A stretch of DNA of 64,000 nt from Patescibacteria group bacterium (GTDB taxonomy: Bacteria; Patescibacteriota; Patescibacteriia; UBA9934), in the NCBI GenBank assembly GCA_041661425.1, contig JBAZUI010000001.1:8507-72506 (forward strand), written 5' to 3'. Under the pieces are notes generated by a model. It searched no databases. It was not told where the DNA came from and worked only from the letters and a program-made list of their open reading frames with translations. The translations under genes were made by a program, and so were the position numbers. Below are positions 5,388 through 58,500 of the stretch, piece after piece (the stretch's first letter is position 1; every line of letters starts with the position of its first letter).

Positions 5388-5415
5388 TTCGTAGGGCTTG
5401 GTCTGCGTATGGGCT

Positions 5416-5439
5416 TGGCATACCAAGCCCATGCGATGA
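5416..5439. terminator. perfect hairpin ATGGGCTTGGCATACCAAGCCCAT
   Basis: 10-bp stem read directly. Lies downstream of 4854..5387 with a partial direct repeat (gggcttgg) just upstream. Confidence 0.4.
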
Positions 5440-5459
5440 GAGCATGCGATGCCAAAAAG

Positions 5460-5473
5460 TGTCCGATCGGACC
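5460..5473. promoter_or_regulatory. operator-like palindrome TGTCCGATCGGACC upstream of the cassette-B promoter
   Basis: Near-perfect 14-nt palindrome sharing the core GTCCGATCGGAC with the palindromes at 13029-13042 and 13140-13153. Confidence 0.5.
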
Positions 5474-5488
5474 TTTCTTGTCATCAAA

Positions 5489-5517
5489 TTGACATTCTAG
5501 GCCTTCCAGCTTACAGT
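5489..5517 (+). promoter_or_regulatory. sigma70-like promoter TTGACA-17-TACAGT
   Basis: Canonical -35 with a 17-nt spacer and a TAnnnT -10, followed by AGGAGG 9 nt before the ATG at 5542. Confidence 0.5.
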
Positions 5518-5541
5518 TTTAGTGTCTCAAAGGAGGAAGCC

Positions 5542-5934
5542 ATGGCACTCAGTGACATTTCCACGGTTTTTGTCATGAGTCCCCGTCGGTTCTACCGATG
5601 GTCGCTGCTTAGCTCCGTCGTCGTCTACGCACTCGGCGCCATTGCAGGAGCGGGAGGATTCGCTTTCGCAATTGGAGTTCACGTCCTGGTCGGTTTGTGC
5701 GGGGCAGGCGCTGAACACGACCTTGACATGAAGTACGTTATGGAGTTTGACTGGAAGGTCATGACCGGAATCCAGCGATTCAAGTACTTTTTTCTTCTCC
5801 TTGCCAAGAACATTACTCAGGGGGTCTTCGCCCCGTTCGTTTTGTCGTGGTACATCTACGAACAGTGGCGAGTCCTTCGGGACAGCCTTCGGAAACGTTC
5901 GCATCTCGTCGTCACCCGGATCGACATCAAATAG
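5542..5934 (+). CDS. GC-rich hypothetical small membrane protein (130 aa)
   Basis: Third codon positions are overwhelmingly G/C, unlike the flanking genes. Strong SD, two or three predicted TM segments, no recognisable family. Start chosen at MALSD because of the RBS. Confidence 0.55.
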   Translation: MALSDISTVFVMSPRRFYRWSLLSSVVVYALGAIAGAGGFAFAIGVHVLVGLCGAGAEHDLDMKYVMEFDWKVMTGIQRFKYFFLLLAKNITQGVFAPFVLSWYIYEQWRVLRDSLRKRSHLVVTRIDIK

Positions 5935-5946
5935 TCCGGGTTTTTG
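5914..5946 (+). terminator. rho-independent terminator (ACCCGGA...TCCGGGT + TTTTT)
   Basis: 7-bp stem spanning the stop codon, followed by a T-run. Confidence 0.5.
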
Positions 5947-5996
5947 GTTTCTATCGCGTTTTTTATGCGTTGACGGTATACTATTTCACGAAATCT

Positions 5997-7397: not shown

Positions 7398-7913
7398 ATG
7401 ACAGAAACAAAAGATCTAAAAGATCAATCTCTTCTTCCGGAAGGGGGTGAAGAACTTTTTGAGGTTCGGGTGGAAACAGCGGAAACACTTACATCGAAAG
7501 AGGCAACAAGAGATGCGACAGCAGAAGTGCAGGAACCGATGGCCGAACAACCTGCCGAGGCTCCTCACGTTTCACCGGTCCCTGTGCCTCCCATGGCGGT
7601 TGAAAAAGATCGTCTCACCAAAGAAATCGAGGAAATTCTTTCCAATGATTTGACGGATATCTATCTCACGCTTTCCGAAGATCGCAAAGTGGCCTTTCGA
7701 GAAAAAGGAGAAGAAGTGGCTGTCGCGATTCACGACATGATGAAAACCGGAAAATTAAAAGTGCAAAAAGTCTTGGAGTTGATTTTAGAGTGGTTACGAC
7801 TCATTCCTGGGATCAATAAATTTTTCTTGGAGCAGGAAGCAAAAATAAAAACCGACACGATTGTTCACCGATGGGAAGAAGAATCAATGCGTGTTGACAA
7901 TGGTCTTGTTTAA
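7398..7913 (+). CDS. hypothetical protein (acidic N-terminus, 171 aa)
   Basis: ORF only, no recognisable motifs. Immediately precedes the TraD-like ATPase gene. Confidence 0.4.
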   Translation: MTETKDLKDQSLLPEGGEELFEVRVETAETLTSKEATRDATAEVQEPMAEQPAEAPHVSPVPVPPMAVEKDRLTKEIEEILSNDLTDIYLTLSEDRKVAFREKGEEVAVAIHDMMKTGKLKVQKVLELILEWLRLIPGINKFFLEQEAKIKTDTIVHRWEEESMRVDNGLV

Positions 7914-7922
7914 TTATTTGTT

Positions 7923-10433
7923 ATGACCGAAATCGATCGTCTTATCTATCTTGCTCTCGCCCTGCTAATTGGTTCGGGATTCCTTTTGGTTTTGATCTAT
8001 GGAATCCGGTCCTTTGTGCAGAATCGACCTCCTCTGCAAACCGGGAAGTGGAAGCACGTGACGCTCATGATCACGGTGCCAAAATTCGCAAACGAGGAAG
8101 AGACACGAAATGATGGCGGGATGCAGAAATTGCAAGAACGCATTGGGATTGCCGAAACATTCTATGCGGCCGTGGGAGGATTGTCCTCACAAAAGGGAAT
8201 CACAGCCTGGTTTTTTGGTCGACAGGATCATCTTGCGCTGGAGATGGTCGCCCATGAAAAATTAATCACGTTCTACCTCACGGTTCCGCAGTATCTTTTG
8301 GAATTCGTGGAGCAACAACTTCATGCACAGTATCCCGACGCCAGCGTTCAACCGGTTGAGGATTATAATATGTTTTGCCCAACCGGGACGATTCTTGGTG
8401 GGTATGTGGAGTTAAAACGTGAGATGATTCTTCCAATCAAGACGTATAAAGAATCAGAATCCGATCCATTGAATGCCATCACTAATGCGCTTTCCAAAGT
8501 CCCCGAGGGAGAGGGAATGGCTGTGCAATATATGATCCGACCGGCGAAGTCAAGCTGGCGTTCCATGGGTCAGAGGATTTCCACAAACATGCACAAAGGC
8601 ATGAGCTATCGTGAAGCCGTAAAAGGAAAAAAGGGTTCGGGAAGTGGATGGGCGGAGATGATTTGGAAGAAGAAAGAAACCGATCCGCAAAAAGTTCAGC
8701 AAGAGAACCAACCGCGACAAATGTCACAAGCGGAGCAGGAAATGCTCAAGCGTATTGAAAATAAAATCAGCAAAGCCGGCATGGAAGTGAACATCCGATT
8801 GATGGCTTCTTCGCAAAGTGCCGATGCCGCGCAGGCAAACCTGAATCAAATCCTTCAGGCTTTTGCGCAGTACAATATCTACGAATACGGAAATGCATTT
8901 GTTAAGGCCATTCCTTCGAATAAATCGAAACTCGTCCGTGATTTTATTTATCGTCGATTTTCCACAAAGCATCAATGTCTTTTTAATACCGAGGAGATGG
9001 CCAGTCTTTGGCATTTGCCGCTTCCCACCACGGAAACGCCGTCCATCCGTTGGATGCTTGCGCGCATTGCCCCGGCGCCGGCTGGCATGCCGACGGAGGG
9101 TTTGCACATGGGGTATAACGATTATCGCGGCAAGCGCACGGATATTTTTATTAAGGAAAAAGATCGTCAGCGCCACATGTATCTCATTGGAAAAACCGGA
9201 TCGGGAAAATCGTGGTTTTTGCGGTATATGGCCGTGCAGGATATTCGCGCAGGAAAAGGTGTTTGTGTGATCGATCCGCATGGCGATTTGGTAGATGATA
9301 TTTTGGGCACGATTCCAAAAGAACGAATTGATGATGTGGTCTATTTCTGCCCGGCCGACACCGAACGTCCCATGGGACTCAATATGCTCGAGGCGCCCAA
9401 TGAGAGCATGAAAGATTTTGCGGTTCAGGAAATGATTTCGATTTTTTACATGTTATTTCCGCCGGAAATGATTGGGCCAATGTTTGAGCACAACATGCGC
9501 AATTATATGTTGACGCTCATGGCCGACCAGCATGATCTGGGAACCATTGCGGAAATTCCACGCATGATTGCCGATGATGCGTTTCAAAAATCTTGGGTTG
9601 ATAAAGTCAAAGATCCGGTTGTCATGAGTTTCTGGAAAGATGAGATGGCGAAGACGTCCGATTATCATAAATCGGAAATGATGGGCTACCTTGTTTCGAA
9701 AGTCGGACGATTCGTGGAAAACGAAATGATGCGAAATATCATCGGGCAATCAAAATCCGCTTTTAATTTCCGCGAGATTATGGATTCCGGGAAGATTTTG
9801 CTCGTGAATCTTTCAAAAGGAAAAACAGGTGAGGTCAACGCGAATCTTTTGGGTCTCATCATTGTTGCAAAATTGCAGATGGCCGCATTCTCGCGCGCGG
9901 AGCTTCCCGAAGATCAGCGCCGCGATTTCTTTCTCTATATCGACGAGTTTCAAAATTTTATCACGCCTTCTATTGCAACGATTTTGTCTGAAGCTCGAAA
10001 ATATCGCCTTAATTTGATTCTTGCACACCAATACATGGGACAGCTCGTGAAAAACAACGATACGCAGATTCGTGATTCCATTCTTGGAAACGTTGGAAAT
10101 ATGTTTGTGGCGCGTATTGGTCCGGAAGATGCGGAGATTCTCTCGAAAATTTATGAGCCGACATTTTCCGGTTACGACTTGATGAATACAGACAATTTTA
10201 CATGGAATGCAAAAATTGTGGTTGACATGGCTCAGCTCAAGCCGTTTACCATGAAAGTGGCAACACCGGATAAGCCAAATCTCAAACTTGCCGAAGCGCT
10301 CAAGGAGATGTCACGTCTAAAATATGGTCGACCAAAGGCAATGGTCGAGCAAGAAATCGCCATGCGCGCGGGCATTGGCGCTGTGGCGGCTGGCACAGAA
10401 CGCACACCACCGCCCATTCCACCAACGATGTAA
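7923..10433 (+). CDS. membrane-anchored P-loop NTPase, TraD/TraG/VirD4 (T4SS coupling protein)-like / DUF87-like
   Basis: N-terminal TM helix. Walker A LIGKTGSGKS followed by VCVIDPHGDL, Walker B FFLYIDEFQNF, and LILAHQYMGQL. The size (836 aa) and motif spacing resemble coupling-protein/HerA-FtsK superfamily ATPases. Confidence 0.6.
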   Translation: MTEIDRLIYLALALLIGSGFLLVLIYGIRSFVQNRPPLQTGKWKHVTLMITVPKFANEEETRNDGGMQKLQERIGIAETFYAAVGGLSSQKGITAWFFGRQDHLALEMVAHEKLITFYLTVPQYLLEFVEQQLHAQYPDASVQPVEDYNMFCPTGTILGGYVELKREMILPIKTYKESESDPLNAITNALSKVPEGEGMAVQYMIRPAKSSWRSMGQRISTNMHKGMSYREAVKGKKGSGSGWAEMIWKKKETDPQKVQQENQPRQMSQAEQEMLKRIENKISKAGMEVNIRLMASSQSADAAQANLNQILQAFAQYNIYEYGNAFVKAIPSNKSKLVRDFIYRRFSTKHQCLFNTEEMASLWHLPLPTTETPSIRWMLARIAPAPAGMPTEGLHMGYNDYRGKRTDIFIKEKDRQRHMYLIGKTGSGKSWFLRYMAVQDIRAGKGVCVIDPHGDLVDDILGTIPKERIDDVVYFCPADTERPMGLNMLEAPNESMKDFAVQEMISIFYMLFPPEMIGPMFEHNMRNYMLTLMADQHDLGTIAEIPRMIADDAFQKSWVDKVKDPVVMSFWKDEMAKTSDYHKSEMMGYLVSKVGRFVENEMMRNIIGQSKSAFNFREIMDSGKILLVNLSKGKTGEVNANLLGLIIVAKLQMAAFSRAELPEDQRRDFFLYIDEFQNFITPSIATILSEARKYRLNLILAHQYMGQLVKNNDTQIRDSILGNVGNMFVARIGPEDAEILSKIYEPTFSGYDLMNTDNFTWNAKIVVDMAQLKPFTMKVATPDKPNLKLAEALKEMSRLKYGRPKAMVEQEIAMRAGIGAVAAGTERTPPPIPPTM

Positions 10434-10440
10434 GCGGTAG

Positions 10441-10472
10441 GGGCAGGTTACAGACTTGCCCTTTTGTTATTA
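10441..10472 (+). terminator. rho-independent terminator / REP-like hairpin GGGCAGGTTACAGACTTGCCC + TTTTGTTATTAT
   Basis: 8-bp stem (one G:U pair) with a T-run directly after the stop of 7923..10433. Closely related to the hairpin at 43023-43045. Confidence 0.6.
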
Positions 10473-10477
10473 TCGAA

Positions 10478-10508
10478 CCCCTCCTTTTTAAGGAGGGGTA
10501 AGGGGTGG
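10478..10508. repeat. palindromic repeat, copy 2: CCCCTCCTTTTTAAGGAGGGG + TAAGGGGTGG
   Basis: Matches the element at 3350-3381 except for the loop and one position. Confidence 0.7.
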
Positions 10509-10530
10509 TTGTGTGAAAAACTGGCGATCA

Positions 10531-10564
10531 AAAGCCCTCGGCCGAGACGACGGCTGAGGGCGAG
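10531..10564 (-). terminator. 34-bp hairpin repeat (copy 1) acting as terminator of minus-strand gene C1
   Basis: AAAGCCCTCGGCCGAGACGACGGCTGAGGGCGAG. On the minus strand it forms a hairpin followed by TTTTGATCGCC. An identical copy is at 11163-11196. Confidence 0.65.
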
Positions 10565-10586
10565 CAGTCTTGCGAAGCAAAGAAAA

Positions 10587-11045
10587 TCAGGGCGCAGCCG
10601 GCATCGAGTCGATGACAGCTGTGGGAGCTGGTGGCTCCGTCGAGAGGTCGATCTGCTCGAACCCTCCACGTGGATCGCTCGGAGGCATGGGGACTGATGG
10701 GATCCCGCCGTCCACGATGATCTGGTTGATCCTCTTGGCGTTTTCACACATCATGGGATCGCCCCCGGGCGCGCACGCCTCGACGACGTCCTGCCTCGAG
10801 CGCTCGTGCGTTCGAGCCTCGATCTTGTCGAGCTCCTCGGACTCGATCTTGTCGGGATGGGCGAGGAGCCATTCAATCCTCGCTTCGTCTTCCTCCTCCG
10901 TTGGAGTTCGCGATCCCTCGACGGCCGTGCTCATGGTTTGGAAGAGGAGGTATGACGAAACGCCTCCCACACAGATTCCTCCGGTTGCGAGACAGAGGAG
11001 GAGGATGATCACGATCAGCAGAACACTGTGTTTTCTCTTTTCCAT
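10587..11045 (-). CDS. GC-rich hypothetical membrane-anchored or secreted protein (153 aa)
   Basis: Start at MEKRK (ATG complement at 11043-11045), preceded by AGGAG. N-terminal basic stretch plus a TM helix (LLIVIILLLCLATGG), then a hydrophilic Pro/Glu-rich domain. G/C-rich codons. Confidence 0.5.
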   Translation of the reverse strand: MEKRKHSVLLIVIILLLCLATGGICVGGVSSYLLFQTMSTAVEGSRTPTEEEDEARIEWLLAHPDKIESEELDKIEARTHERSRQDVVEACAPGGDPMMCENAKRINQIIVDGGIPSVPMPPSDPRGGFEQIDLSTEPPAPTAVIDSMPAAP

Positions 11046-11091
11046 TGATGACGACTCCTGACCTGGGTTAGCTACCAGAGATGTACGTATG

Positions 11092-11120
11092 ATGTTAGAC
11101 AAGAAAAACAAATATGTCAA
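11092..11120 (-). promoter_or_regulatory. minus-strand promoter TTGACA-17-TAACAT for gene C1
   Basis: Read on the reverse complement: TTGACA at 11115-11120, TAACAT at 11092-11097, RBS AGGAG at 11055-11059. Confidence 0.5.
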
Positions 11121-11162
11121 TAGCTTTGTACAGACCTTGCCGATTAAGCCCTTAGAAACACG

Positions 11163-11196
11163 AAAGCCCTCGGCCGAGACGACGGCTGAGGGCGAG
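11163..11196 (-). terminator. 34-bp hairpin repeat (copy 2), terminator of minus-strand gene C2
   Basis: Identical to 10531-10564. On the minus strand it is followed by TTTCGTGTTTCT. Confidence 0.65.
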
Positions 11197-11209
11197 AAGA
11201 CGAAGTAGA

Positions 11210-11353
11210 CTACCTGGCCTGGAAGTACCAGGTATGCAGATTCCCCGGGCTCGGGGAGTTAATGAGGCCACGCGACTGCAACGTGGCCACGAGAATCAAG
11301 AGCGCCAAGGCCATGAAGATCATGACCCCAATCGTACGCGGATTATCCGCCAT
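11210..11353 (-). CDS. GC-rich hypothetical small membrane peptide (47 aa)
   Basis: Start at MADNP with GGAGG 5 nt upstream. One TM helix (IGVMIFMALALLILVA). The longer track ORF (71 aa) has no SD. Confidence 0.4.
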   Translation of the reverse strand: MADNPRTIGVMIFMALALLILVATLQSRGLINSPSPGNLHTWYFQAR

Positions 11354-11386
11354 CGGAGCCTCCATGGCTTTTAGTAGACGGCTATT

Positions 11387-11415
11387 AGTATGCTCCTTTT
11401 TGTCCTTTCTGTCAA
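11387..11415 (-). promoter_or_regulatory. minus-strand promoter TTGACA-17-CATACT for gene C2, divergent from the dnaX promoter region
   Basis: Reverse complement of 11410-11415 is TTGACA, and of 11387-11392 is CATACT. Confidence 0.4.
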
Positions 11416-11459
11416 CCATTTCCATTCACAGGTGGTCGTGCTAAAATGCGGCTACCTCT

Positions 11460-12998
11460 ATGGTACATGAAGCAATTTATCGGAAATATCGCCCGCAAGT
11501 TTTTGCGGATATTGTGGGGCAGTCTCACATTCGAACCACGCTTGAAAATCAACTCAAAACAAATCGCGTGGCTCATGCCTATCTCTTTTCTGGTCCGCGA
11601 GGAATCGGAAAAACAACCTGTGCGCGATTACTTGCGAAAGCCGTGAATTGCGAGCAACGCAAAGAAGGAAGCTCGGAACCGTGCAATGCATGTGAAGCGT
11701 GTCAAAACTTTTTGGCCGGGCGATCACTCGATATCGTGGAAATCGATGCGGCAACTCATACGGGCGTTGAGAATGTCCGCGATACGATTATCGATGCTGT
11801 CCGTTTTGCTCCGGCCGCAGGAAAATTCAAGGTCTTCATCATCGATGAAGTCCACATGCTTTCAACATCATCATTTAATGCGTTATTAAAAACGCTCGAG
11901 GAACCACCGGCCTATGCCATTTTTATTCTCGCGACCACGGAAATGCAGAAGATTCCTGAGACAATTCTTTCACGGTGCCAACGATTTGATTTTCGTCGCA
12001 TGAGTCCGCAGGAGATGCTTGATCGTTTACACACGATCCTTACAGCCGAAGATGTCGAAATTGAAGAAGAAGTGTTGCGAGCAATTATCCGTGCTTCCGA
12101 AGGAGCTTTGCGTGATGCAGAAAGTCTTTTAGGACAAGTGCTCGCTCTTGGGGAAAAGAAAATCACCAAGGAACTCGCTTCGCTTGTGATTCCGGTTGGA
12201 TCGATTGAAACAACTTCACACATCATTGCGGCTCTTGTGATGGGTGATGAAAAAGCGGCAATGGAAACACTGATCTCGTTTCAGAATCAGGGTGGAATGC
12301 CAACACTTTTGCTCGATGAGATGATTGAATACGTTCGCATGATTCTATTTGAGCGCATTGGTGCGCCGCATGACGATCGTTATCCCGATGTCATCATGCA
12401 AGAAATTCGCGCTTTAGCAAAAACATTTAATGAAGAACAATGTCTTTCTCTTTTGAATCTGCTTCTTGATGCAAAAGCTCGACCAGCAACTGATCCATTT
12501 CCTTCACTCCCGCTTGAGCTCGCCATGGTTCTTTTTTGTACGCAAAAACCTCGATCGATTCCGGTGCCGGTGGTCGTCACAGCGCCTCCATGTGTTGAGG
12601 GGGCGGATCTCCTTAAAACAATTCCCATTCAAAAGGGAATGCCAGAGAAGAAAGCAGAACCGGTTGTGACGCCGGAAAAGAAAGCGAGTTTTACACTTGA
12701 AGAGGTTCAGAACAAATGGGGACGTTGTTGCGAGGCGGTTGGCGCGCGAAATATCGCGCTTCCCATGGCGCTCAATGAAGCACGTCCGGAATCGTTTGAT
12801 GTAGATGGGCGATTGTGTATTCGATTCGATCGGGAGTTTCATTTTGAAACGCTTAATAAGCCTGGGAATCTGAAGATTCTTACTGAGGCCATTGCGGAGG
12901 TGATGCAATCGCCGGTGGTAGTGATGCCGATTTTTACAAAGAAACCCGAAGGAGAAGTGAACGATTTAGCTCAACAATTCGGCGGGGAAGTGATGTAA
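11460..12998 (+). CDS. dnaX: DNA polymerase III subunit gamma/tau
   Basis: N-terminal YRKYRPQVFADIVGQ, P-loop GPRGIGKTT, DEVHML, and the clamp-loader C-terminal domains. An extended -10 TGCTAAAAT lies 20 nt upstream. Confidence 0.93.
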   Translation: MVHEAIYRKYRPQVFADIVGQSHIRTTLENQLKTNRVAHAYLFSGPRGIGKTTCARLLAKAVNCEQRKEGSSEPCNACEACQNFLAGRSLDIVEIDAATHTGVENVRDTIIDAVRFAPAAGKFKVFIIDEVHMLSTSSFNALLKTLEEPPAYAIFILATTEMQKIPETILSRCQRFDFRRMSPQEMLDRLHTILTAEDVEIEEEVLRAIIRASEGALRDAESLLGQVLALGEKKITKELASLVIPVGSIETTSHIIAALVMGDEKAAMETLISFQNQGGMPTLLLDEMIEYVRMILFERIGAPHDDRYPDVIMQEIRALAKTFNEEQCLSLLNLLLDAKARPATDPFPSLPLELAMVLFCTQKPRSIPVPVVVTAPPCVEGADLLKTIPIQKGMPEKKAEPVVTPEKKASFTLEEVQNKWGRCCEAVGARNIALPMALNEARPESFDVDGRLCIRFDREFHFETLNKPGNLKILTEAIAEVMQSPVVVMPIFTKKPEGEVNDLAQQFGGEVM

Positions 12999-13015: not shown

Positions 13016-13055
13016 TGATGACAGAAGTGGTCCGATCGGACCACTTCTGTCATCA
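13016..13055. promoter_or_regulatory. 40-bp perfect palindrome TGATGACAGAAGTGGTCCGA|TCGGACCACTTCTGTCATCA (terminator for dnaX and/or operator; centre GGTCCGATCGGACC)
   Basis: Perfect 20+20 inverted repeat read directly, 17 bp upstream of the TTGACA at 13072. Confidence 0.6.
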
Positions 13056-13071
13056 GGGCGGTAACCGCGCG

Positions 13072-13100
13072 TTGACAGGTGCGCCTTTTTGGCGTATTAT
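13072..13100 (+). promoter_or_regulatory. sigma70-like promoter TTGACA-17-TATTAT
   Basis: Canonical hexamers with a 17-nt spacer, followed by a ~100-nt 5'UTR carrying a second palindrome. Confidence 0.55.
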
Positions 13101-13139
13101 TTTCGGTCCTTTTCTAACGTTATCGATCGTTTCATAAAT

Positions 13140-13153
13140 GGTCCGGTCGGACC
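13140..13153. promoter_or_regulatory. operator-like perfect palindrome GGTCCGGTCGGACC in the 5'UTR
   Basis: 14-nt perfect palindrome; a sibling of the core at 13029-13042 and of 5460-5473. Confidence 0.5.
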
Positions 13154-13201
13154 TTTTGTGAAACGATCACGCTCTTTCGTATTCTCATCCTGGAGGTTCC
13201 C

Positions 13202-14197: not shown

Positions 14198-14210
14198 CTC
14201 TGCCCTTCGT

Positions 14211-14249
14211 GGCCGTTCCTGCACCTGCGGGGACGGCCGCTGTATTTTA
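14211..14249 (+). terminator. rho-independent terminator (GGCCGTTCC...GGGACGGCC + TGTATTTTAT)
   Basis: GC stem followed by a T-rich run after the stop of 13202..14197. Confidence 0.5.
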
Positions 14250-14260
14250 TACAAAAAACT

Positions 14261-14306
14261 ATGAATTGATATTCATGGTTTTTTTGTGGTTCCCGGACAG
14301 GGATTC
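14261..14306. repeat. direct repeat duplicating the 3' end of tRNA-Gln plus flank (gatattcatggtt...tggttcccggacagggattc)
   Basis: A 20-nt exact match to 14461-14480, with matching flank gatatt(t)catggtt. This is an att-like duplication of the tRNA 3' end. Confidence 0.6.
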
Positions 14307-14460
14307 CTCCTCATCCGTCGTTCGCGTGTTCCCTCGGAACAGGCTCACTCCTCCTTCAGAGCCGGGGTCGTCCAAAACGTAAAGTAGTTTACGTTTTGTC
14401 CGTACCCTTCGAATCCCTGTCGTAAATAAAATATCGCCAGCCGAAGCTGTCGATATTTCA

Positions 14461-41827: not shown

Positions 41828-41832
41828 AAAAC

Positions 41833-50423: not shown

Positions 50424-51268
50424 AAGATCTCTCGATTATTGTCGTCACATTTAATGAAGACATCGAGATTCTGCGGGATTGTTTTACTTCGGTTACGGCG
50501 TCCGCGGGACTCAGCTGGGAGCTCTTAGTTGTTGATAATGCTTCACGGCCTGCAACAAAAAACCTCGCCGAATCCATTCCACAGACGCGTTACATTCCCA
50601 ATCCCACGAACCGTGGATTTGCCGCGGCCGTCAATCAAGGCTTAAAACTGTCCAATGGACGCTATCTACTTCTTTTAAATCCGGATACCCGATTTTCAAA
50701 TGAGACGCTCGCGACCATGGTGAAGCGGCTCGATGAGAACAATGAGGTCGGGATTGCCAGTGGTTTGATTCGTTATCCCGACGGTTCTCTTCAGGAGAGT
50801 ATTCGTCGATTTCCAACCGTCCTCGATCAATTGCTAATTCTCCTGAAGGTTCCGCATCTGTGCACAACAGCGACGGTTGATCGCTATATGATGCGTGAAG
50901 CGAATCCAATGCAGACGCAGGATGTTGATTCGATTATGGGCGCCTTCATGTTTTTGCGTCGCGCCTGTTTGGAAGACGTCGGTTTGTTTGATGAACAATA
51001 TTTTATTTGGTTCGAGGAGGTTGATTATTGTAAGATGGCCGTGCATCACGGTTGGAAAATTCGTCATTTCGGAGATATTGAGGTGACTCATCATAAAGGG
51101 CATGCCTTTGGGAAAATTGAAACTTTGAAAAAGCAACGATGGATTCGTGAGAGCTTGCGCAAGTATCTTTTGAAGCATCATGGTCGTGGTGTTTGGCTTG
51201 TGTTCTGGATTCTCACGCCAATTTTTCTTGTTCTTGCCTTGATCACCGCGCTCATCAAACGTCAATAA
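50420..51268 (+). CDS. family 2 glycosyltransferase
   Basis: LSIIVVTFNE, VVDNAS and DxD motifs; ATGA overlap with the upstream gene; C-terminal TM helix. Confidence 0.8.
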   Translation: MKDLSIIVVTFNEDIEILRDCFTSVTASAGLSWELLVVDNASRPATKNLAESIPQTRYIPNPTNRGFAAAVNQGLKLSNGRYLLLLNPDTRFSNETLATMVKRLDENNEVGIASGLIRYPDGSLQESIRRFPTVLDQLLILLKVPHLCTTATVDRYMMREANPMQTQDVDSIMGAFMFLRRACLEDVGLFDEQYFIWFEEVDYCKMAVHHGWKIRHFGDIEVTHHKGHAFGKIETLKKQRWIRESLRKYLLKHHGRGVWLVFWILTPIFLVLALITALIKRQ

Positions 51269-51269
51269 T

Positions 51270-52874
51270 ATGATGTTGAAACAATGGTTTTCACAACGAA
51301 CGCTTGTTCTCCTCCTTCTCGCGGTGGCCGTGCATCTTGGCGCATGGTTTTTTCGAGACACGATTTTTAGCCTTCCGTGTCTTCTCGCAGTTGGCGTGAC
51401 CATGGGGGTTTTTTCCTATCAAAATCTTCGTGGCGGATTACTTCTCGCGTTCTTCGAGATTTTCATCGGCGGGCACGGCCATCTTCTCGATGCGGATTTT
51501 TTCGGTTTCGCGCTCTCACTCCGTATGGTGATCTTCGTCGGCGTTTTGACGGCTTGGGCGATTCTTTTTTTTCAAAAGAAGGTGTCGTTGCATTGGGTGC
51601 CACTTCGGGATCTTCCGTGGATTATTTTCATGCTTGCGATTGCGATTGGGGCTTTGATCGGATTTTCGCAAAATGATTTTTCAAATGCATTTGATGATCT
51701 TAATAGTTATGCGAGCATCGCCTTTCTCTTGCCGCTTCTTTCGCTTTCGTGGAATCAAGAAGATCGTCGAGCCATTCTTCAAACGCTCATGGCCGCCGGC
51801 ATGTGGATCGTGGGTTCAACGCTTCTTCTTTCCTTCCTCTTCACTCATCTTCCGGGAAAGGCGAGTCATGAAATTTATACGTTTGTGCGCGATAGTCGCC
51901 TGGCGGAAATCACCTTGCAAACCGTGTCAAATAGTCGTGGGGAAGTGGTCGAACCGTGGATGGCCGCGCTTTTTGGGGCCGATGGATATTGGTATCGGAT
52001 TTTTATGCCCTCGCAATTTTTTGTGATTGTTCTTCTTCTCCTTTTCGTTGCCGCCGCTCTTGCCCTTTATAAAAAAGAACGACTTTCCGAATGGATCACC
52101 ATCGGATTGATTGGCGGAAGCGCTGCTCTCTTTTTGAGCTATTCTCGAAGTTTTTTTCTGGGACTTTTTTGCGCTGGAATTTTCTTAATTGGCCTTATTT
52201 GGTATTTTGAGCGTCCCAATCTTGTGCATCTTCTCAAGCGGTTGAGTTGGATTGGTATTTGCGGCGCGTTTGGTTTTGGCTTGGCCTGGATGAGTATTGC
52301 TGTTCCCATTCCCGCGCAACCGGATCTGACAGAGGCGACCTTTTACGAAACGAGTGCGGATACAAGTCGAAGCATGGCTGTTTCGAGTCGTTGGCAACTT
52401 CTTGGTCCGCTCATGGAAAGTATTTTTGCATCCCCGATTCTTGGATCAGGATTCGGAAAAGAAGTCACGTATATTTCCGATGATCCTCGCATTCGAGAAA
52501 TTGATCCCACAGGGGCGTATACCACGTATCGGTTTGAGTGGGGCTACCAGGACTTGTGGCTCAAAATGGGCTTGCTGGGGCTTGTGGCACTTGTGATTTA
52601 TACGGCCTCAATTGCGCTGGGGGTACTATTTACCTTGCACACCCATGGGTATAAATGGATTCTTCTTGGATGGCTTTCGGGTATTGCGGCGCTATTTGTC
52701 ATTCATATTTTTTCTCCGTATCTCAATCATCCAATTGGCATCACGACCCTCATGGTGATTCTTCCGTTTCTTGATTATCAAGGTCTTCTTGCGTCACGAG
52801 AAGATTACCGTGAACGTAAAAATATCAAAACCGTCGCCATGGCACAGCCAATAGCGAGCCGTCACGAAAGCTAA
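51270..52874 (+). CDS. O-antigen ligase / polymerase-family membrane protein
   Basis: Polytopic membrane protein with a Wzy_C-like loop region, at the end of the GT cluster. Confidence 0.55.
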   Translation: MMLKQWFSQRTLVLLLLAVAVHLGAWFFRDTIFSLPCLLAVGVTMGVFSYQNLRGGLLLAFFEIFIGGHGHLLDADFFGFALSLRMVIFVGVLTAWAILFFQKKVSLHWVPLRDLPWIIFMLAIAIGALIGFSQNDFSNAFDDLNSYASIAFLLPLLSLSWNQEDRRAILQTLMAAGMWIVGSTLLLSFLFTHLPGKASHEIYTFVRDSRLAEITLQTVSNSRGEVVEPWMAALFGADGYWYRIFMPSQFFVIVLLLLFVAAALALYKKERLSEWITIGLIGGSAALFLSYSRSFFLGLFCAGIFLIGLIWYFERPNLVHLLKRLSWIGICGAFGFGLAWMSIAVPIPAQPDLTEATFYETSADTSRSMAVSSRWQLLGPLMESIFASPILGSGFGKEVTYISDDPRIREIDPTGAYTTYRFEWGYQDLWLKMGLLGLVALVIYTASIALGVLFTLHTHGYKWILLGWLSGIAALFVIHIFSPYLNHPIGITTLMVILPFLDYQGLLASREDYRERKNIKTVAMAQPIASRHES

Positions 52875-53803
52875 AGTGTTGTTTCTAGAAAATCCGGATA
52901 CCCATTGAGAAAATCCTTGGCTGACATTTTTGATTTACTCTCGGGTTGAACGGAGAGAATCTCGAGTGCGGTTGTTGATGAGCCAATATAAAGTTTTCCT
53001 TCGATTGATCTCACGGATCCGGCCGGAATGCTGAGCTCACTTGGTCGAAGCTCGTGAATTTTAAGAGAAAGAGGTTTTCCAAATCGATTCCACAGACATG
53101 AGACTCCCGGCCAAGGGTAGAATGCGCGATACATCCGATCGATTTCTTCGCTACTTTTTTTCCAATCAATGATTCCATCTTCTCGGGTGAGCATGGAACA
53201 AATAATCGCCTCGGCGTGATTCTGTTCGCGCGGGGTGAGTGTTCCATTCTCGAGTGCATGAATGGTGGCTACGAGGAGTTTTGGACCGGCATGAAATATT
53301 TTTCCTTCCAGGGTTTGCATGGTCTCTCGTGAATCGAGTGGAAAAGCGAACTGCGCAAGAATCGGACCATGATCCATTTCGCGATCGAGTTTGATGATGG
53401 TTACTCCGCTTTCCATATCGCCGTGAAGAATGGCACTCTGCCGAGGGGAAGGACCACGATATTTTGGTAAAAGTGATGGATGGACGTTCACGGCGCCGAA
53501 TTTTGGAAGATCAAGAAGGGAAATCGGAATGATTTTTCCATAGGCAACCACCACGAAAAGATCTGCATGAAGATTTGTGATTGTTTCGAGCGCCTCTTTC
53601 GATTTGATGCGCTCAAACTCAAAAACCGGAAGACCGTGTTCTTTTGCAATGACTTTTACGGCTGAGGGGACAAGCTCCTTTTTTCGGCCCACGGGCTTGG
53701 ACGGTTGAGTGACAACTCCCACGATTTCAATAGCCTTATCGTCAATAAGCGCCTCAAGAAAAGGGACGGAGAAGGAAGGAGTACCAAAAAATACAATGCG
53801 CAT
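52871..53803 (-). CDS. fmt: methionyl-tRNA formyltransferase
   Basis: MRIVFFGTP N-terminus, formyltransferase SLLP-HG motif (VNVHPSLLPKYRG), and pairing with def. Confidence 0.92.
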   Translation of the reverse strand: MRIVFFGTPSFSVPFLEALIDDKAIEIVGVVTQPSKPVGRKKELVPSAVKVIAKEHGLPVFEFERIKSKEALETITNLHADLFVVVAYGKIIPISLLDLPKFGAVNVHPSLLPKYRGPSPRQSAILHGDMESGVTIIKLDREMDHGPILAQFAFPLDSRETMQTLEGKIFHAGPKLLVATIHALENGTLTPREQNHAEAIICSMLTREDGIIDWKKSSEEIDRMYRAFYPWPGVSCLWNRFGKPLSLKIHELRPSELSIPAGSVRSIEGKLYIGSSTTALEILSVQPESKSKMSAKDFLNGYPDFLETTL

Positions 53804-53806
53804 GCC

Positions 53807-54271
53807 TTATGTTTTATCGTGAATAGAAAGAGCTTTATCGATAAACAGAATCCCATCCAGATGATCAATCTCATGTTGAAAAACAATCGCCGACAGTCCG
53901 GTGGCTTTCACGGTTATGGGCTGGCCCTGATCGTTGAGGGCGCTCACGGTGACGCGCGTGTAGCGTTTGACGATTCCGACTTTTCCCGGGACGGAAAGAC
54001 AACCTTCTTCGCCTGCGACCTTACGCAAACCATGATGAATGATTTTTGGATTGAGAAAAGCATTGAATCCCTCTTTTGACGCAATGACGATCACGCGAAT
54101 AGATTCCCCGATTTGCGGAGCGGCCAAACCAACCCCATCTTCCTTGAGCATGGTTTCTCCCATATCGCGCACCAGTTCAGAAAAATTCGTGCGTGAAAAA
54201 TCTTCGGGTATCACGTCACGCGCGACTTCACGAAGCAGGGGATTGGGATGATGGAGAACCGGGCGAATCAT
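53807..54271 (-). CDS. def: peptide deformylase
   Basis: GLAAPQIG, EGCLSVPG and HEIDHLDG metal-binding motifs. Confidence 0.95.
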   Translation of the reverse strand: MIRPVLHHPNPLLREVARDVIPEDFSRTNFSELVRDMGETMLKEDGVGLAAPQIGESIRVIVIASKEGFNAFLNPKIIHHGLRKVAGEEGCLSVPGKVGIVKRYTRVTVSALNDQGQPITVKATGLSAIVFQHEIDHLDGILFIDKALSIHDKT

Positions 54272-55997
54272 AGGTTGGATATAATATCTCTATTGTACCT
54301 CGTTCTGGAAGTTGGTCGAGGGTTTCTGAAAGATGAGTGAATTGCTCTTGAGTGAAAAAACCCTTTGCGAGATGTTGTTCTTCTCGGAAGTAGCGTGAGT
54401 TTTGACCAAGTGCCGGCAGAAGCGTTGGCGCCAGGCGAACCTCGATGGTGCTTGGTGGAAGCCCGTACTGAGCACGGGTGTTTTTGATTTCTTCGATAAC
54501 CGTTTGAGTCTTCACGAGCGATTTAACCGCGTCACTCATCCAGGTTTGAATGAAGAGTGGCGTTTTTTGATAACCCGCAAAGTGCATGAGCCGATGGAGT
54601 CTTGCGGCCGCGAGCTCACGACTTCGATAATCAGGCTGATTGAGGTGATAATCAAATGTGAGATCAGCGATGAGTCCCCAAGAACGATCAAATGGAAGGG
54701 CGAAGGAATCAAAGTGATAATCAGTCACGAGAAGAATGCTTGCCCCGGGCTCTTGAATATCTTTATCGATGATCCCGATTTTTATTTCGGGAAACGCTTT
54801 TTCAAGACGTCGCTTCATGACTTTGTTCCCAATTCCTTTCTCGAAAAAGAGAGATTTGCCACAAAACGGACAGCTCGTTGGGAGCGAAAAGCTCTTGAGA
54901 CATTGCGGACATCGCATTCCAGAATCCGTGCATTCCGGAGTGGCTTCGCAGATCGGGCAACTGGGAATCGCCTTACAATGCTCACATTGCAGATATTTGG
55001 CATTTCCTTTGCGATTGAACGAAAGTAACACGGTTTTTTGCCCTTGTAAAGCCTCTTTAATGGCGTTGTAGAGCGTTTCAGAGAGCCCGGGGGTATTTCC
55101 ATGCTCATCCTGATGTTTGAGGTCAATAATCGTTGGTTTTTGAGGGGGATCTTCAAGAAACGAATGAAACTCTCTTCCGATTCGTGGAAAAGCGCCGGAA
55201 GCGTGACATTCCGCTTTCCAAGCCTTTGCGAGCATCTCTCCTGCCAAACGCACATCGAATCGTGGATTGCGATCAATGAGATCATATTCTCGGCTTGAGA
55301 GATCGTGGATGTGAACGATGGAAAGATCGTGGGCCGGCAAAAGCGAGGCTTGTCGATTTCCAATAAGGGTTCGAATATCTCCATGACGCCATCCGGCAAT
55401 GATGGATTCGCGGTGTGTTCCTTTTGTGTGTCCGGTGAGCACCGCAACTCCAGGACCGAGTGGAATTCGTTCCGCCAGCATTTCAGCGGTTCGCTCTCGG
55501 GGAACAAGAACGAGAAGTTGTCCTTTTGTTTTTTTTCGGAGAAGCCCGGAAAAAATCATTTCACCCTCCTGCGATGTCTCAAAAAAAGAGCCTGTGGTGG
55601 CGGCGGCCGATTGAGCAAGGCGAACGCTTTCACGCGAAAAAAGTGAAGAGATTCTTTTTTTCTGGATAAACGGGCTTGCCTTCTTTGCGCGAGCCGCATA
55701 TCCCATACAGGCGGTATAGAGAATGGTTGAAGGAGATTGGAAAATGAGTTGTGCTAACTTTTCGTAACGTATCAAATCAGCGTTCGAGAGAAAATTTGAT
55801 TCAATAAGCTCCTCGAGTGGAATCAAACGGTGTGTTGATGTCGAGACCAAACTTCGGACAATTCCCAAAGAACGATGCCCGCGAAAGCTCACCCGCACCA
55901 AATCACCGATGCCGATCTGCAGGCCTTCGGGAATTGCATAATCAAAAAAATCGAACCTCCTTGGAAGCCGGCGAATGAGGTAAACCTCGGCGACCAT
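54228..55997 (-). CDS. priA: primosomal protein N' (PriA)-like, with apparently degenerate helicase motifs
   Basis: PriA N-terminal 3'BD-like region and the characteristic double zinc-binding Cys cluster (CEHCKAIPSCPIC...CPQC...CPFCG). No canonical GxGKT Walker A or DEEH box was recognised by eye. Confidence 0.6.
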   Translation of the reverse strand: MVAEVYLIRRLPRRFDFFDYAIPEGLQIGIGDLVRVSFRGHRSLGIVRSLVSTSTHRLIPLEELIESNFLSNADLIRYEKLAQLIFQSPSTILYTACMGYAARAKKASPFIQKKRISSLFSRESVRLAQSAAATTGSFFETSQEGEMIFSGLLRKKTKGQLLVLVPRERTAEMLAERIPLGPGVAVLTGHTKGTHRESIIAGWRHGDIRTLIGNRQASLLPAHDLSIVHIHDLSSREYDLIDRNPRFDVRLAGEMLAKAWKAECHASGAFPRIGREFHSFLEDPPQKPTIIDLKHQDEHGNTPGLSETLYNAIKEALQGQKTVLLSFNRKGNAKYLQCEHCKAIPSCPICEATPECTDSGMRCPQCLKSFSLPTSCPFCGKSLFFEKGIGNKVMKRRLEKAFPEIKIGIIDKDIQEPGASILLVTDYHFDSFALPFDRSWGLIADLTFDYHLNQPDYRSRELAAARLHRLMHFAGYQKTPLFIQTWMSDAVKSLVKTQTVIEEIKNTRAQYGLPPSTIEVRLAPTLLPALGQNSRYFREEQHLAKGFFTQEQFTHLSETLDQLPERGTIEILYPTYDSPGSPSSQSPAS

Positions 55998-55998
55998 A

Positions 55999-56793
55999 TC
56001 AATTGATTTGGAAATTCACGACAAGATACCCGACTCCGAATGGAGCTTCGTAGGAAAGAATTCTTGGATGCCCACTCATGCGTTCGATGATGCCAAGAAG
56101 TAAGGCGAGCGGTTTTGAAATTTCTTCCTCGGCTTTTTCAAAAAGCGATGATTCCATTTGCAAAAGGCCGGCGGAATTTTTGGTGACAATGAGCTCCTGA
56201 ATTTTTTTATCAAACATGTCACCCTCAGGCGCGAATCCGGAAGGTGAGGTCGACGTGAGGGCATGCGAAAGATCTCCCGAGGCAATAACCGCGATTCGAT
56301 GATCGGAGTCGAGAATCAAATCCTTAAGCGTTGCGCCGAGTGCATAGTGATCCTTGAGGCTCAAATCTTTTGCATAGGACATGGGAAAGAGGTGAACATC
56401 GGAAAGATGTTCGGTGAGGAGAAGAAGCGGGACCGCGGCCGCATAATGAAGCGCTTCATCGCTCGTGAGCGTGAGAGGGATTTTTTGATAGCGAAGCGCT
56501 CGTTGAACGCGATCGATTAAAAGAAAATCAGGATGAAACGTTTGATGATGAGAGAGATCTCCAAATTCGCGAAGATCAAGCTTGAATGGGTCGCAGAGAT
56601 TGATGGAGAATGCATCTGCGTACATGGTTGGGTGTTTGGAAAAAAGAAGAATCGTCTCGGGTTTTGCGGCATAGAGTTCTTCCGCGAGTTCGGCCATGGC
56701 AATGCGCGTTTGCGAAACCGCGCCGATTTTTTCGGTGTTCACGGAAGGGAGAAGCAATGGGGAATGGGGGGTGAGCCCCGCAAAAACCAACAT
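55999..56793 (-). CDS. Memo/LigB-like (class III extradiol dioxygenase-fold; AmmeMemoRadiSam system protein B-like) protein
   Basis: Size and the N-terminal H-rich pattern (LTPHSP...) resemble the Memo1/LigB fold. Weak, from memory only. Confidence 0.35.
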   Translation of the reverse strand: MLVFAGLTPHSPLLLPSVNTEKIGAVSQTRIAMAELAEELYAAKPETILLFSKHPTMYADAFSINLCDPFKLDLREFGDLSHHQTFHPDFLLIDRVQRALRYQKIPLTLTSDEALHYAAAVPLLLLTEHLSDVHLFPMSYAKDLSLKDHYALGATLKDLILDSDHRIAVIASGDLSHALTSTSPSGFAPEGDMFDKKIQELIVTKNSAGLLQMESSLFEKAEEEISKPLALLLGIIERMSGHPRILSYEAPFGVGYLVVNFQIN

Positions 56794-56794
56794 A

Positions 56795-58171
56795 TTATTC
56801 CATCACGTCCTTGAGGTCGAGTCCAATTGGAAGAAGCGCAAGAGTTTCTGGGGCAACATCGATGACATCGCCAAACGACCATCCATATGAATTGAAGACT
56901 TGCTCCGTGGTAATGGGTCGCAATTTTTCTTCCGAGACAATATAGACAACCGGGCTATCCGTTGCTTTCACAAGATACCCATCAGCGAAGAGAAGCGGTT
57001 CACCCTCTTTGTACTGCTCAACTACCGCTGGTTCAACACGCACGATCGTGGGGGACTGCCAGCGAGAATGAATGATCGCTTCATCGACAATCGCATGGCG
57101 GATTCCGTTCTCAACATAGAAGTAGGCTCCGTTTGTCGTGAGTTGCATGAGTGCTCCTTGTGGATAGGCGGTTGTGGCGGTGATATCCTCACCGATTTCG
57201 AAATTGCCAAGTTCATCGTTTGTGATTTGGATAATTTCGTCTTCGGAATAGCCGATTGATTGGAACGTCTCTTGGGAATCAATCTGGCGGAGCGTGTCAT
57301 CCACTAAAAGATAAATGTTGTCACCTTCATCTTTTAACAAAGAATAATTCGGGAAATCAATTGGTTTTCCATCGGGGTAACTCGCAAGAACCGTTCGTGA
57401 TACTTCAATCAAACGATCTTCGTCGAAACGTGACGTAAATGCGCTCCAACTGTGGATCGGGCGTTTGTAGCCATATTCAATAAGATAAATTCCGGATTCT
57501 CCAGCCACTTGTAAGAGCGAACCCGTCGGGTACTGCAAACTAAACCAACGATTCCAAATTTCGGCAAAGTTTTCATTGCCATGAAGATGCGGGGTATAAG
57601 CATAAAGGGAAGCGGTTGCGGCATTGGCCGGAGTCACGACCGTATCGTCAATGACAATCGAAATTCCCGGTCCGTATTTTCCATACGTCACCCCCATGCT
57701 CTCGATATCCTCAAGATAGCCATCGCGCACTTGCGCGGCTGCGGAATTGACTTGTTTTCCAAATCCCTGCCAGCGCATCACATACGGATCATTTTTTGAA
57801 CAATCATCGCACACGGCATAACCCGTTGCCCAATCAAGCTGATTTTGCGTTGGGTCATCATCCTCAACAAGACTTTGTTCTTTTTGCAAAAGCACAAGAA
57901 GAAATTTTTGACTGATTCCATACGCCTGGGCCGCGCGATCAATAATATCGGTTGCCGTCCGCATCACTCCGTCCGCATCTGTTGTCACATAACTCCCAAG
58001 ATATCCGCGATCGAGAAATGCTTGAATCTGATTACGATCAAGAGCAAAAGGATTCTCGAGCTCATCATCGGAAAGAATATAGTTTGGATCAAACTCGAAG
58101 GCAAATGCCGAGCAGGGGATTGCCGCAACAATTCCCAGCGCCAAAATAAGTGAAATCTTGTGGATATTCAT
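56795..58171 (-). CDS. hypothetical secreted protein (458 aa)
   Basis: Clear signal peptide (MNIHKISLILALGIVAAIPCSAFA); no recognisable family. Confidence 0.5.
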   Translation of the reverse strand: MNIHKISLILALGIVAAIPCSAFAFEFDPNYILSDDELENPFALDRNQIQAFLDRGYLGSYVTTDADGVMRTATDIIDRAAQAYGISQKFLLVLLQKEQSLVEDDDPTQNQLDWATGYAVCDDCSKNDPYVMRWQGFGKQVNSAAAQVRDGYLEDIESMGVTYGKYGPGISIVIDDTVVTPANAATASLYAYTPHLHGNENFAEIWNRWFSLQYPTGSLLQVAGESGIYLIEYGYKRPIHSWSAFTSRFDEDRLIEVSRTVLASYPDGKPIDFPNYSLLKDEGDNIYLLVDDTLRQIDSQETFQSIGYSEDEIIQITNDELGNFEIGEDITATTAYPQGALMQLTTNGAYFYVENGIRHAIVDEAIIHSRWQSPTIVRVEPAVVEQYKEGEPLLFADGYLVKATDSPVVYIVSEEKLRPITTEQVFNSYGWSFGDVIDVAPETLALLPIGLDLKDVME

Positions 58172-58249
58172 ACGAGCAGATTATAGCATTTCCTATTCCT
58201 ATATATAAGAGGAGCTAGATTGAAAATCGCTTAAATAAGCAAAATAACC

Positions 58250-58278
58250 TTGACAAAAGGCCGATTTTATGGTATACT
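58250..58278 (+). promoter_or_regulatory. strong sigma70 promoter TTGACA-17-TGgTATACT (extended -10)
   Basis: Perfect -35, 17-nt spacer, extended TG and a near-consensus -10; drives the 41-aa peptide gene. Confidence 0.6.
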
Positions 58279-58327
58279 AATACTTGTATCAGGCAATCCC
58301 GCCTGAATCCCCGCCGGAGGACTTCCC

Positions 58328-58453
58328 ATGTCCACCCGCCCCAACAATGCCCCTTTTGGCCTTGCGAATGATATCGCGGGGCACCTCCTTTTTTCCGCCG
58401 CCGGCCTCACGCTGGCGGTCCTCATCCTTCTCTGCATGGGCACCCCTTACTAG
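58328..58453 (+). CDS. GC-rich hydrophobic micro-peptide (41 aa, one TM helix)
   Basis: GGAGGA 6 nt upstream of the ATG. Peptide MSTRPNNAPFGLANDIAGHLLFSAAGLTLAVLILLCMGTPY. Sits between a strong promoter and a hairpin terminator. Confidence 0.5.
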   Translation: MSTRPNNAPFGLANDIAGHLLFSAAGLTLAVLILLCMGTPY

Positions 58454-58472
58454 TCCATGCAGATCTCCTCGA

Positions 58473-58500
58473 CCCGCAGGCCACTTGGTTCTGCGGGTTT
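58473..58500. terminator. hairpin terminator CCCGCAG...CTGCGGG + TTT (shared by convergent genes)
   Basis: 7-bp GC stem followed by a T-run. Confidence 0.5.

Follow-up and report, generated by a model that had tools for sequence, protein, structure and literature searches.

Phage morons, a concept associated with Hendrix and Juhala and typified by those of HK97 and HK022, are single open reading frames (ORFs) with a sigma-70-type promoter and a factor-independent terminator of their own, and a GC content unlike that of the surrounding genes (PMC3594210). Many of them encode small membrane proteins, the gp15 exclusion protein of HK97 among them. Here we describe six single-gene cassettes of similar anatomy, numbered loci 1 to 6 with products P1 to P6, that are dispersed over 53 kb of a 64-kb stretch of DNA from a metagenome-assembled genome (MAG) of a Patescibacteria group bacterium. 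This whole stretch is referred to as the window. The genomes of Patescibacteria, also known as the candidate phyla radiation (CPR), are small and syntenic, and are thought to evolve mostly by loss. In this genome, the six loci probably represent independent and recent imports of single ORFans, placed in intergenic spacers and derived from one or more GC-richer donors that use Shine-Dalgarno (SD) sites. A sequence-only reading, made by a model without database searches, had described them as a family of self-contained units of foreign composition, forming a horizontally acquired and co-regulated set with a membrane-perturbing, immunity-peptide or toxin-like role.

As in the morons, each locus appears from its signals to be a self-contained transcription unit, with a promoter, an SD site and a single ORF and, at five of the six, a convincing terminator. 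The cassettes also differ from their flanks in composition, and the GC content of their third codon positions (GC3), at 0.66-0.81, is clearly distinct from that of native genes, at 0.464 +/- 0.027 (mean and standard deviation of 30 long native genes, range 0.40-0.51). Their products, too, are mostly predicted small membrane proteins. The insertion of morons between genes that are adjacent in relatives is matched at loci 2 and 3, which share the one junction that could be compared closely, and locus 4 lies in a variable interval. Morons, however, sit in phage or prophage genomes, whereas the cassettes are flanked by chromosomal housekeeping genes and have no PHROG matches; the genes scanned near the loci included none for phage structural proteins, an integrase or a repressor. 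The cassettes are moron-like in anatomy but, with their chromosomal setting, are not members of the moron class.

The second point of comparison is with acquired ORFans and genomic islets, which are likewise lineage-restricted, short and free of homologues, with atypical codons, and which are found in spacers and beside a tRNA gene. Most ORFans of E. coli have been inferred to be imported (PMC13012023). In gut species, the GC content of orphan genes tracks that of conserved genes, with phage-like orphans being AT-richer and de novo candidates lower in GC (PMC11293555). The cassettes differ in that their GC3 lies some 24 points above that of native genes, and in that they follow a different grammar of translation initiation. 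They are of a known kind, ORFan islets that were acquired laterally and are built like morons, seen here in an unusually clear form and in an under-studied lineage.

Two further systems bear a more partial likeness. The cassettes of integrons and superintegrons are also small, single-gene and mostly ORFan, and palindromic repeats are found here at some boundaries, those of cassette 2 and of the locus 4 promoter. The present cassettes differ in having their own promoters and in being dispersed, with no array and no attC-like element for each cassette; just two pairwise hairpin families occur, at four of the six loci, and no intI was seen among the genes scanned. P3 (47 aa) and P6 (41 aa) resemble the toxins of type I toxin-antitoxin systems, which are also hydrophobic peptides of fewer than about 60 residues with a single transmembrane (TM) segment and their own promoters. 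They differ in lacking the typical long structured 5' untranslated region and in showing no homology to known toxin families. A promoter for an antisense RNA was not found within locus 3, near locus 6 there was only a 9/12 match, and Rfam gave no match.

Composition, expression signals and products

The window has a GC content of 0.47 and includes hrcA, grpE, dnaK, dnaJ, cysS, the gene for a VirD4-like coupling protein (T4CP), dnaX, tRNA-Gln, mnmA, VKOR, era, a ribosomal-protein/rpoA operon and a Mur ligase gene. An Rfam scan of the window returned three tRNAs and nothing else. The genes that flank the six loci are dnaJ, cysS, T4CP, dnaX, tRNA-Gln, mnmA, VKOR, era and the Mur ligase gene. P1 (130 aa, WC730_00075) is encoded at 5542-5934 on the forward strand, with a GC3 of 0.66. 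P2 (152 aa, WC730_00095; GC3 0.73) and P3 (47 aa; GC3 0.81) are encoded on the reverse strand, at 10587-11045 and 11210-11353, respectively. P4 (331 aa, WC730_00110; GC3 0.67), P5 (106 aa, WC730_00215; GC3 0.74) and P6 (41 aa; GC3 0.76) are read from the forward strand at 13202-14197, 31942-32262 and 58328-58453. The coordinates and frames first proposed for all six ORFs are correct. Exact look-up in a protein collection confirmed the PGAP/NCBI annotation of P1, P2, P4 and P5 as hypothetical proteins, and returned no match for P3 and P6; P4 is identical to NCBI protein MFA6130658.1, encoded on a 118-kb contig of a Patescibacteria group bacterium MAG.

The elevation of GC3 is significant for every ORF (binomial p = 9e-5 to 6e-14 against 0.465), although the sequence-only reading had overstated it in describing codons that end almost uniformly in G or C amid genes that are A/T-rich at these positions. 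About 70% of third positions are G or C in the cassettes, and the native genes are balanced, at about 46%, rather than strongly A/T-rich. In windowed GC the six loci are the largest GC-rich patches of the window, where they occupy five of the ten intergenic gaps of more than 120 bp; the 64 kb yielded no seventh candidate. The pooled GC contents of the first, second and third codon positions are 58.7, 41.5 and 70.1%, with the order GC3 > GC1 > GC2 holding in the sense frame of all six ORFs. This pattern is that of real genes equilibrated in a GC-richer genome, with no drift of GC3 towards the host value, and from the lack of such a lag the arrival of the cassettes would be recent. By the regressions of Muto and Osawa and of Lawrence and Ochman, the pooled values would correspond to a donor of roughly 52-60% GC.

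The same shift is seen codon by codon. Native genes prefer GAT (84%), TAT (71%), AAT (80%), TTT (72%), GAA (60%) and AAA (67%), whereas the cassettes prefer GAC (66%), TAC (81%), AAC (57%), TTC (70%), GAG (67%) and AAG (61%), and also shift from CAA to CAG. In a leave-one-out likelihood test, every cassette is closer to the cassette pool than to native usage, by 0.04 to 0.20 per codon, against -0.18 +/- 0.035 per codon for native genes. A codon bias linked to expression was considered and rejected, since the ribosomal-protein genes, rpoA and dnaK have native-like usage, with an NNC fraction of 0.29 and an NNG fraction of 0.37.

Translation start signals set the cassettes apart a second time. 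An SD site precedes all six ORFs, as had been claimed, with duplex energies of -6.9 to -11.5 kcal/mol and a spacing of 3-8 nt; that of locus 1 is AAGGAGG at 5530-5536 on the forward strand, and loci 3 and 6 have GGAGG. In the native genes the mean energy is -2.8 kcal/mol and only 4 of 47 reach -6.5 kcal/mol (Fisher p = 9e-6 against the cassettes); SD-like sites are found at dnaJ, hyp171, L17 and the DUF559 gene. Conversely, 41 of the 47 native genes (87%) have a T at position -1, giving TATG, a feature of just one cassette (p = 9e-4). About a dozen native genes have a TAnAAT box, mostly with a TG extension, that ends 8-9 nt before the ATG, for example at 20499, 20948, 22468, 36491, 56795 (reverse strand), 58499 (reverse), 58768 (reverse) and 60488. 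From the sequence, this layout looks like that of leaderless or near-leaderless transcripts. When 13 related loci were surveyed crudely, SD sites were present in 0-33% of genes, mostly at or below 13%, with T at -1 frequent in about half of the loci; relatives of 59-63% GC are likewise SD-poor. As even GC-rich relatives are poor in SD sites, the start signals of the cassettes are atypical for the whole clade.

The promoters match TTGACA-N17-nAnnnT exactly at all six loci, in keeping with the original description, and lie far enough upstream to leave predicted leaders of tens of nucleotides (about 100 nt at locus 4). Each has TTGACA and a 17-nt spacer, followed by TACAGT at locus 1 (5489-5517, forward strand), TAACAT at locus 2 (11092-11120, reverse), CATACT at locus 3 (11387-11415, reverse), TATTAT at locus 4 (13072-13100, forward; 11 of 12 matches), TAGCGT at locus 5 (31880-31908, forward) and TATACT with a TG extension at locus 6 (58250-58278, forward). 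The -10 hexamers have just three to five of six matches to TATAAT, and that of locus 5 is weak. Eight exact sites of this form are found in the window, where 3.0 would be expected by chance; six belong to the cassettes, and the remaining two stand before tRNA-Gln and the S13-S11-S4-rpoA-L17 operon.

The hairpin terminators that had been ascribed to all six loci hold for loci 2 to 6, where a stable hairpin is followed by a T-run, and not for locus 1, whose weak terminator-like hairpin (5914-5946, forward) is no better than shuffled sequences (z = 0.07). The others lie at 10531-10567 (locus 2, reverse), 11163-11199 (locus 3, reverse), 14209-14250 (locus 4, forward; an intrinsic terminator with a 14-bp stem and T-run), 32297-32321 (locus 5, forward) and 58468-58502 (locus 6). 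The last is a bidirectional terminator held in common with a convergent 84-aa ORF with two TM segments (58499-58753, reverse strand), which matches NCBIfam holin_4 at 83.4 bits (cutoff 70). This ORF has native-like codons and lies 14 nt downstream of the Mur ligase gene on the same strand. Codon usage, translation signals and promoter layout all distinguish the cassettes from native genes. Against a native background without SD sites and largely of leaderless type, the signals that had been regarded as textbook are themselves foreign-looking, a contrast that the sequence-only reading overlooked.

The products had been described as five small TM peptides and a secreted lipoprotein. The first part of this description is supported, and hydrophobic segments suggest that P1, P2, P3, P5 and P6 are targeted to the membrane. 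P2, P3, P5 and P6 each have one such segment of at least 19 residues, which in P2 is an N-terminal TM anchor followed by a tail that is acidic and rich in Pro. In P1, a broad hydrophobic stretch (residues 26-52) could accommodate two spans. The assignment of P4 as a lipoprotein is weak: in its possible short signal, MLFILLVAC, the lipobox L-V-A-C occupies residues 6-9 and is preceded by just five residues, none of them K or R. AlphaFold2 models made without an alignment predict, at low confidence, a TM helix and then a small beta domain in P5 (pLDDT 65.5, pTM 0.28); neither this model nor that of P4 (pLDDT 38.6) is good enough for a fold search.

No product could be assigned to a family, in agreement with the first description. 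For none of the six did Pfam, PHROGs, NCBIfam or PADLOC yield a match above noise, the best sub-threshold matches being P3 to DUF7503 (E = 0.003; 17.6 bits, cutoff 27) and P2 to FliL (E = 0.04). A word-indexed search of 5.8 billion clustered proteins with P1, P2 and P4 returned only the queries themselves. For P4, a strict ORFan, a full HMMER scan of 1.84 billion representatives gave two matches with E of about 1e-4 to repeat proteins of 920-950 aa; these were judged spurious, the score being spread among the repeats with no common domain. IMG/VR, queried with P1, P2, P4, P5, the terminator hairpin and the hairpin core described below, gave nothing or single matches at chance level, and neither a plasmid tblastn search with P5 nor a comparison of all six products with 2 Mb of related Patescibacteria loci gave any match. 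The term family does not apply to the cassettes among themselves either, as the six proteins and their DNA are mutually unrelated except for two short shared hairpins.

Gene order, repeats and assembly support

DnaX-anchored scans of genomes and metagenomes found no close relative, the top DnaX identity being 47%, which limits presence/absence comparison to the T4CP-dnaX junction and, loosely, to the interval from dnaX to tRNA-Gln. The order hyp171-T4CP-dnaX (7398-12998 here) is a conserved one, shared by 56 Patescibacteria loci (L003-L139) drawn from genomes and metagenomes. The gap between T4CP and dnaX is shorter than 150 bp in 14 of these, and most of the wider gaps hold a same-strand gene of about 200 aa, from one of two families, with a GC3 that matches its neighbours; in relatives with a gap of more than 200 bp, its GC content is within 0.07 of that of the locus. 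In the window this gap is 1027 bp long, has a GC content of about 0.56 (against 0.47) and holds two ORFans on the opposite strand, the ~200-aa gene being absent. Loci 2 and 3 thus lie between conserved genes, as had been noted, and none of the 56 relatives carries them. The possibility that the foreign segment reaches into the 3' end of T4CP was rejected: this end is native in its composition and its homology extends to residue 804-832 of 836, which puts the start of the foreign DNA after the T4CP stop codon. In the closest relative (L082), the dnaX-mnmA interval holds tRNA-Gln together with a phosphatase-like ORF, a 257-aa membrane protein and a 144-aa acidic protein. This difference in gene content marks the interval as variable and locus 4 as private to the present genome.

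Two hairpin families recur at the cassettes. The terminator hairpins of loci 2 and 3, of 34-37 nt, are direct repeats that are 97-100% identical, lie 632 bp apart and bracket cassette 2. The second family, with the core GGTCCGRTCGGACC, has three copies in the window, at loci 1 and 4 only. An imperfect 39-nt palindrome (5448-5486, forward strand; core TGTCCGATCGGACC) lies 3 nt upstream of the -35 box of locus 1; a perfect 40-nt palindrome (13016-13055, forward; core GGTCCGATCGGACC; -33.6 kcal/mol, z = -8.9) lies between the dnaX stop codon and the locus 4 promoter; and the third copy (13125-13168, forward; core GGTCCGGTCGGACC; z = -7.9) is found within the 5' leader of locus 4. The outer stems of this hairpin vary yet stay paired, as would be expected of a hairpin in RNA or DNA more than of an operator.

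An att-like feature adjoins the terminator of locus 4, where positions 14287-14306 (forward strand) repeat exactly the last 20 nt of tRNA-Gln (14461-14480, within the gene at 14461-14534). The two copies are 174 bp apart, with an inverted 14-nt fragment of the T-arm between them at 14408-14421. These duplications look like the scars of past integration or excision at tRNA-Gln. The repeat brackets just 154 bp, with locus 4 outside it and no integrase gene nearby. Target-site duplications were not found for the individual cassettes, save for the terminator repeat around cassette 2, and four cassettes have no flanking repeats; the genes scanned included neither an integrase nor a transposase. The short direct repeats at some boundaries are a hint of site-specific or hairpin-associated insertion, but the hairpins and repeats together do not amount to a defined mobile element.

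Other repeats are found elsewhere in the window. A hairpin element of about 36 nt, CCCCTCCTT(3-5 nt)AAGGAGGGGT[GA]AGGGGTGGT, in which an SD-like run pairs with its complement, occurs at 3349-3385 and 10477-10512. One copy precedes a gene for a DUF559 (Vsr-like endonuclease) protein that lies between dnaK and dnaJ, and the other stands alone between the terminators of T4CP and locus 2. A 29-nt direct repeat, AATAATGGGGTCAGGTCGGGAATCGGGAA, at 41160-41188 and 41827-41855 (93% identical), exactly brackets a Gp49/HigB-like toxin gene (41214-41531) together with the small ORF that follows it, the putative antitoxin, in 1 kb of AT-rich surroundings (GC 0.405). From its layout, this looks like a site-specifically inserted toxin-antitoxin module. 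Beside it, a 210-aa ORF (41869-42501) without a Pfam match is an AT-rich outlier (GC3 0.33, NNC 0.12). Finally, the 408-aa ORF at 36491-37717 includes three 36-nt GAT/GAC-rich repeats (GATACCGATGGCGACGG...) at 36881-37090, which suggest Asp-rich repeats of a calcium-binding type.

Independent support for the assembly comes from Logan contigs of SRR18595301, which are 100% identical to the window over 1257-5485, 13026-14490 and 48499-60231. Locus 6 is covered along with both of its junctions, and locus 4 along with the junction on the tRNA side. Two of the contigs (L184 and L001) end inside hairpins, at 5485 and 13026, respectively. The break at 13026 would be the behaviour expected of a de Bruijn graph at a perfect 40-nt palindrome, and that at 5485, in the imperfect hairpin before the locus 1 promoter, could reflect polymorphism in the population.

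Origin of the cassettes

The explanation that we favour, and consider probable, is that of separate and recent imports, from one or more donors of about 55-60% GC. The earlier proposal of horizontal acquisition, made on foreign composition, is supported and strengthened by codon usage, by start context and by the absence of loci 2 and 3 from relatives. Each cassette would have arrived as, or would have become, an autonomous transcription unit. The host sigma-70 factor would transcribe it constitutively and strongly, given that the native tRNA-Gln and ribosomal-protein promoters share its consensus, and translation would proceed through SD-led initiation. The products would then insert into, or be exported across, the cytoplasmic membrane as accessory envelope proteins.

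Several points weigh against this explanation. Neither a donor nor a homologue was found in the searches, so that import is argued from composition and signals, and the cassettes come with no integrase or transposase and with no flanking repeat that is consistent among them. For a small genome, six separate single-gene imports that are alike in composition and fall within 53 kb would be densely packed, and the distance of the nearest relatives confines the comparison to two intervals. Expression of the cassettes is presumed, as is the anti-Shine-Dalgarno tail on the 16S rRNA of the host. The ORFs of 41 and 47 aa are short, which makes their coding status less secure, and any function is proposed by analogy alone.

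Quite unlikely, in our judgement, is that the cassettes are a special class of native genes, such as strongly expressed envelope genes, with codon usage and SD starts that result from selection within this genome. The consensus promoter that they have in common with native tRNA-Gln and ribosomal-protein promoters would fit such a class, as would the SD-like sites of a few native genes and the prediction that all six products are envelope proteins. Yet the native codon usage of the ribosomal-protein genes, rpoA and dnaK contradicts it, and the shift includes GAA to GAG, AAA to AAG and CAA to CAG, making it a general one in GC3. Other genes of the window also tell against this view, as VKOR, the holin_4-family gene and ORFs of 129 and 458 aa have native NNC usage and a GC3 of 0.45-0.55, and no relative has a homologue of any of the six products.

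Next in standing, and also of low probability, is that some of the loci, chiefly the ORFs of 41 and 47 aa, are non-coding and represent small RNAs, or else GC-rich spacers with an ORF that merely happens to be open. Stop codons are scarce in GC-rich DNA, and there are also open frames in antisense, at 10570-11061 (forward) and 31801-32307 (reverse); the two shortest products were those missed by exact look-up, and there are no homologues for a test of purifying selection. Against this, the ORFs begin 3-8 nt past a strong SD site and end just before a terminator, five of them (all but that of P4) have a hydrophobic segment at the position of a membrane anchor, the codon-position order is that of the sense frame in all six, and the four longer ORFs are called by PGAP.

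The view put forward in the sequence-only reading, of a co-regulated system distributed among the six loci, whether membrane-perturbing, immunity-peptide or toxin-like, is very unlikely. Its attraction lies in the small size and hydrophobicity of the peptides, with P3 and P6 of the size of type I toxins, in the uniformity of the promoters and in the GGTCCGATCGGACC-core hairpin upstream of loci 1 and 4. This hairpin, however, occurs at only two of the six loci and its paired variable stems point to a hairpin rather than an operator. The signal common to the promoters is the housekeeping-sigma consensus, and its presence at the native tRNA-Gln and ribosomal-protein promoters argues for strong constitutive transcription, not a regulon. 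The products are mutually unrelated, and with no PADLOC, PHROG, Pfam or NCBIfam match, no adjacent partner gene and no convincing antisense promoter, the toxin-like interpretation is not supported.

It is highly improbable that the genes were born in place, whether de novo or by runaway divergence of native non-coding or coding sequence. As strict ORFans that are short and TM-rich, they resemble many young genes, and a share of bacterial ORFans has been argued to arise natively (PMC11293555, PMC13012023). Such genes would be expected to have native or lower GC, de novo candidates falling below other orphans (PMC11293555), whereas the cassettes have a GC3 more than 7 standard deviations above native, a mature codon-position pattern and non-native start signals. 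Next to no weight can be given to a chimera of assembly or binning, with GC-rich fragments of another organism spliced into the contig: the source is a MAG and two Logan contigs do end in hairpins, but the identical contigs cover junctions of loci 4 and 6, the break at 13026 would be expected of its palindrome, and six precise spacer inserts with promoter and terminator intact are unlike chimeras.

Implications for a small, syntenic genome

A more novel possibility is that the cassettes, the repeat-flanked HigB-type toxin-antitoxin module and the DUF559 gene all belong to an undescribed class of minimal mobile unit in CPR genomes. These would be promoter-ORF-terminator modules that insert at, or duplicate, intergenic hairpins or short att-like repeats without a recombinase of their own. 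We regard this as unlikely. More remote is a variant in which, by analogy with T-DNA, the non-native signals would serve expression in the host cell of the CPR bacterium after DNA transfer.

On the favoured explanation of independent single-gene imports, the cassettes give no pointer to a new molecular mechanism, nor to a new toxin or immunity system. They would mean that, across the 64 kb, around one in ten genes was imported recently and came with expression signals of its own. As the native genes are SD-poor and largely of leaderless type, such imports stand out on codon usage, start context and promoter layout, and this contrast on three axes is a simple, assembly-independent flag for foreign genes in MAGs of this sort. 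It may be speculated, by analogy with morons such as that for HK97 gp15, that the products alter the cell surface or membrane, for instance in the exclusion of phage or foreign DNA or in contact with host cells. The envelope is the compartment in which an episymbiont meets its host cells and its phages, and the products of the cassettes are candidates for strain-specific surface traits.

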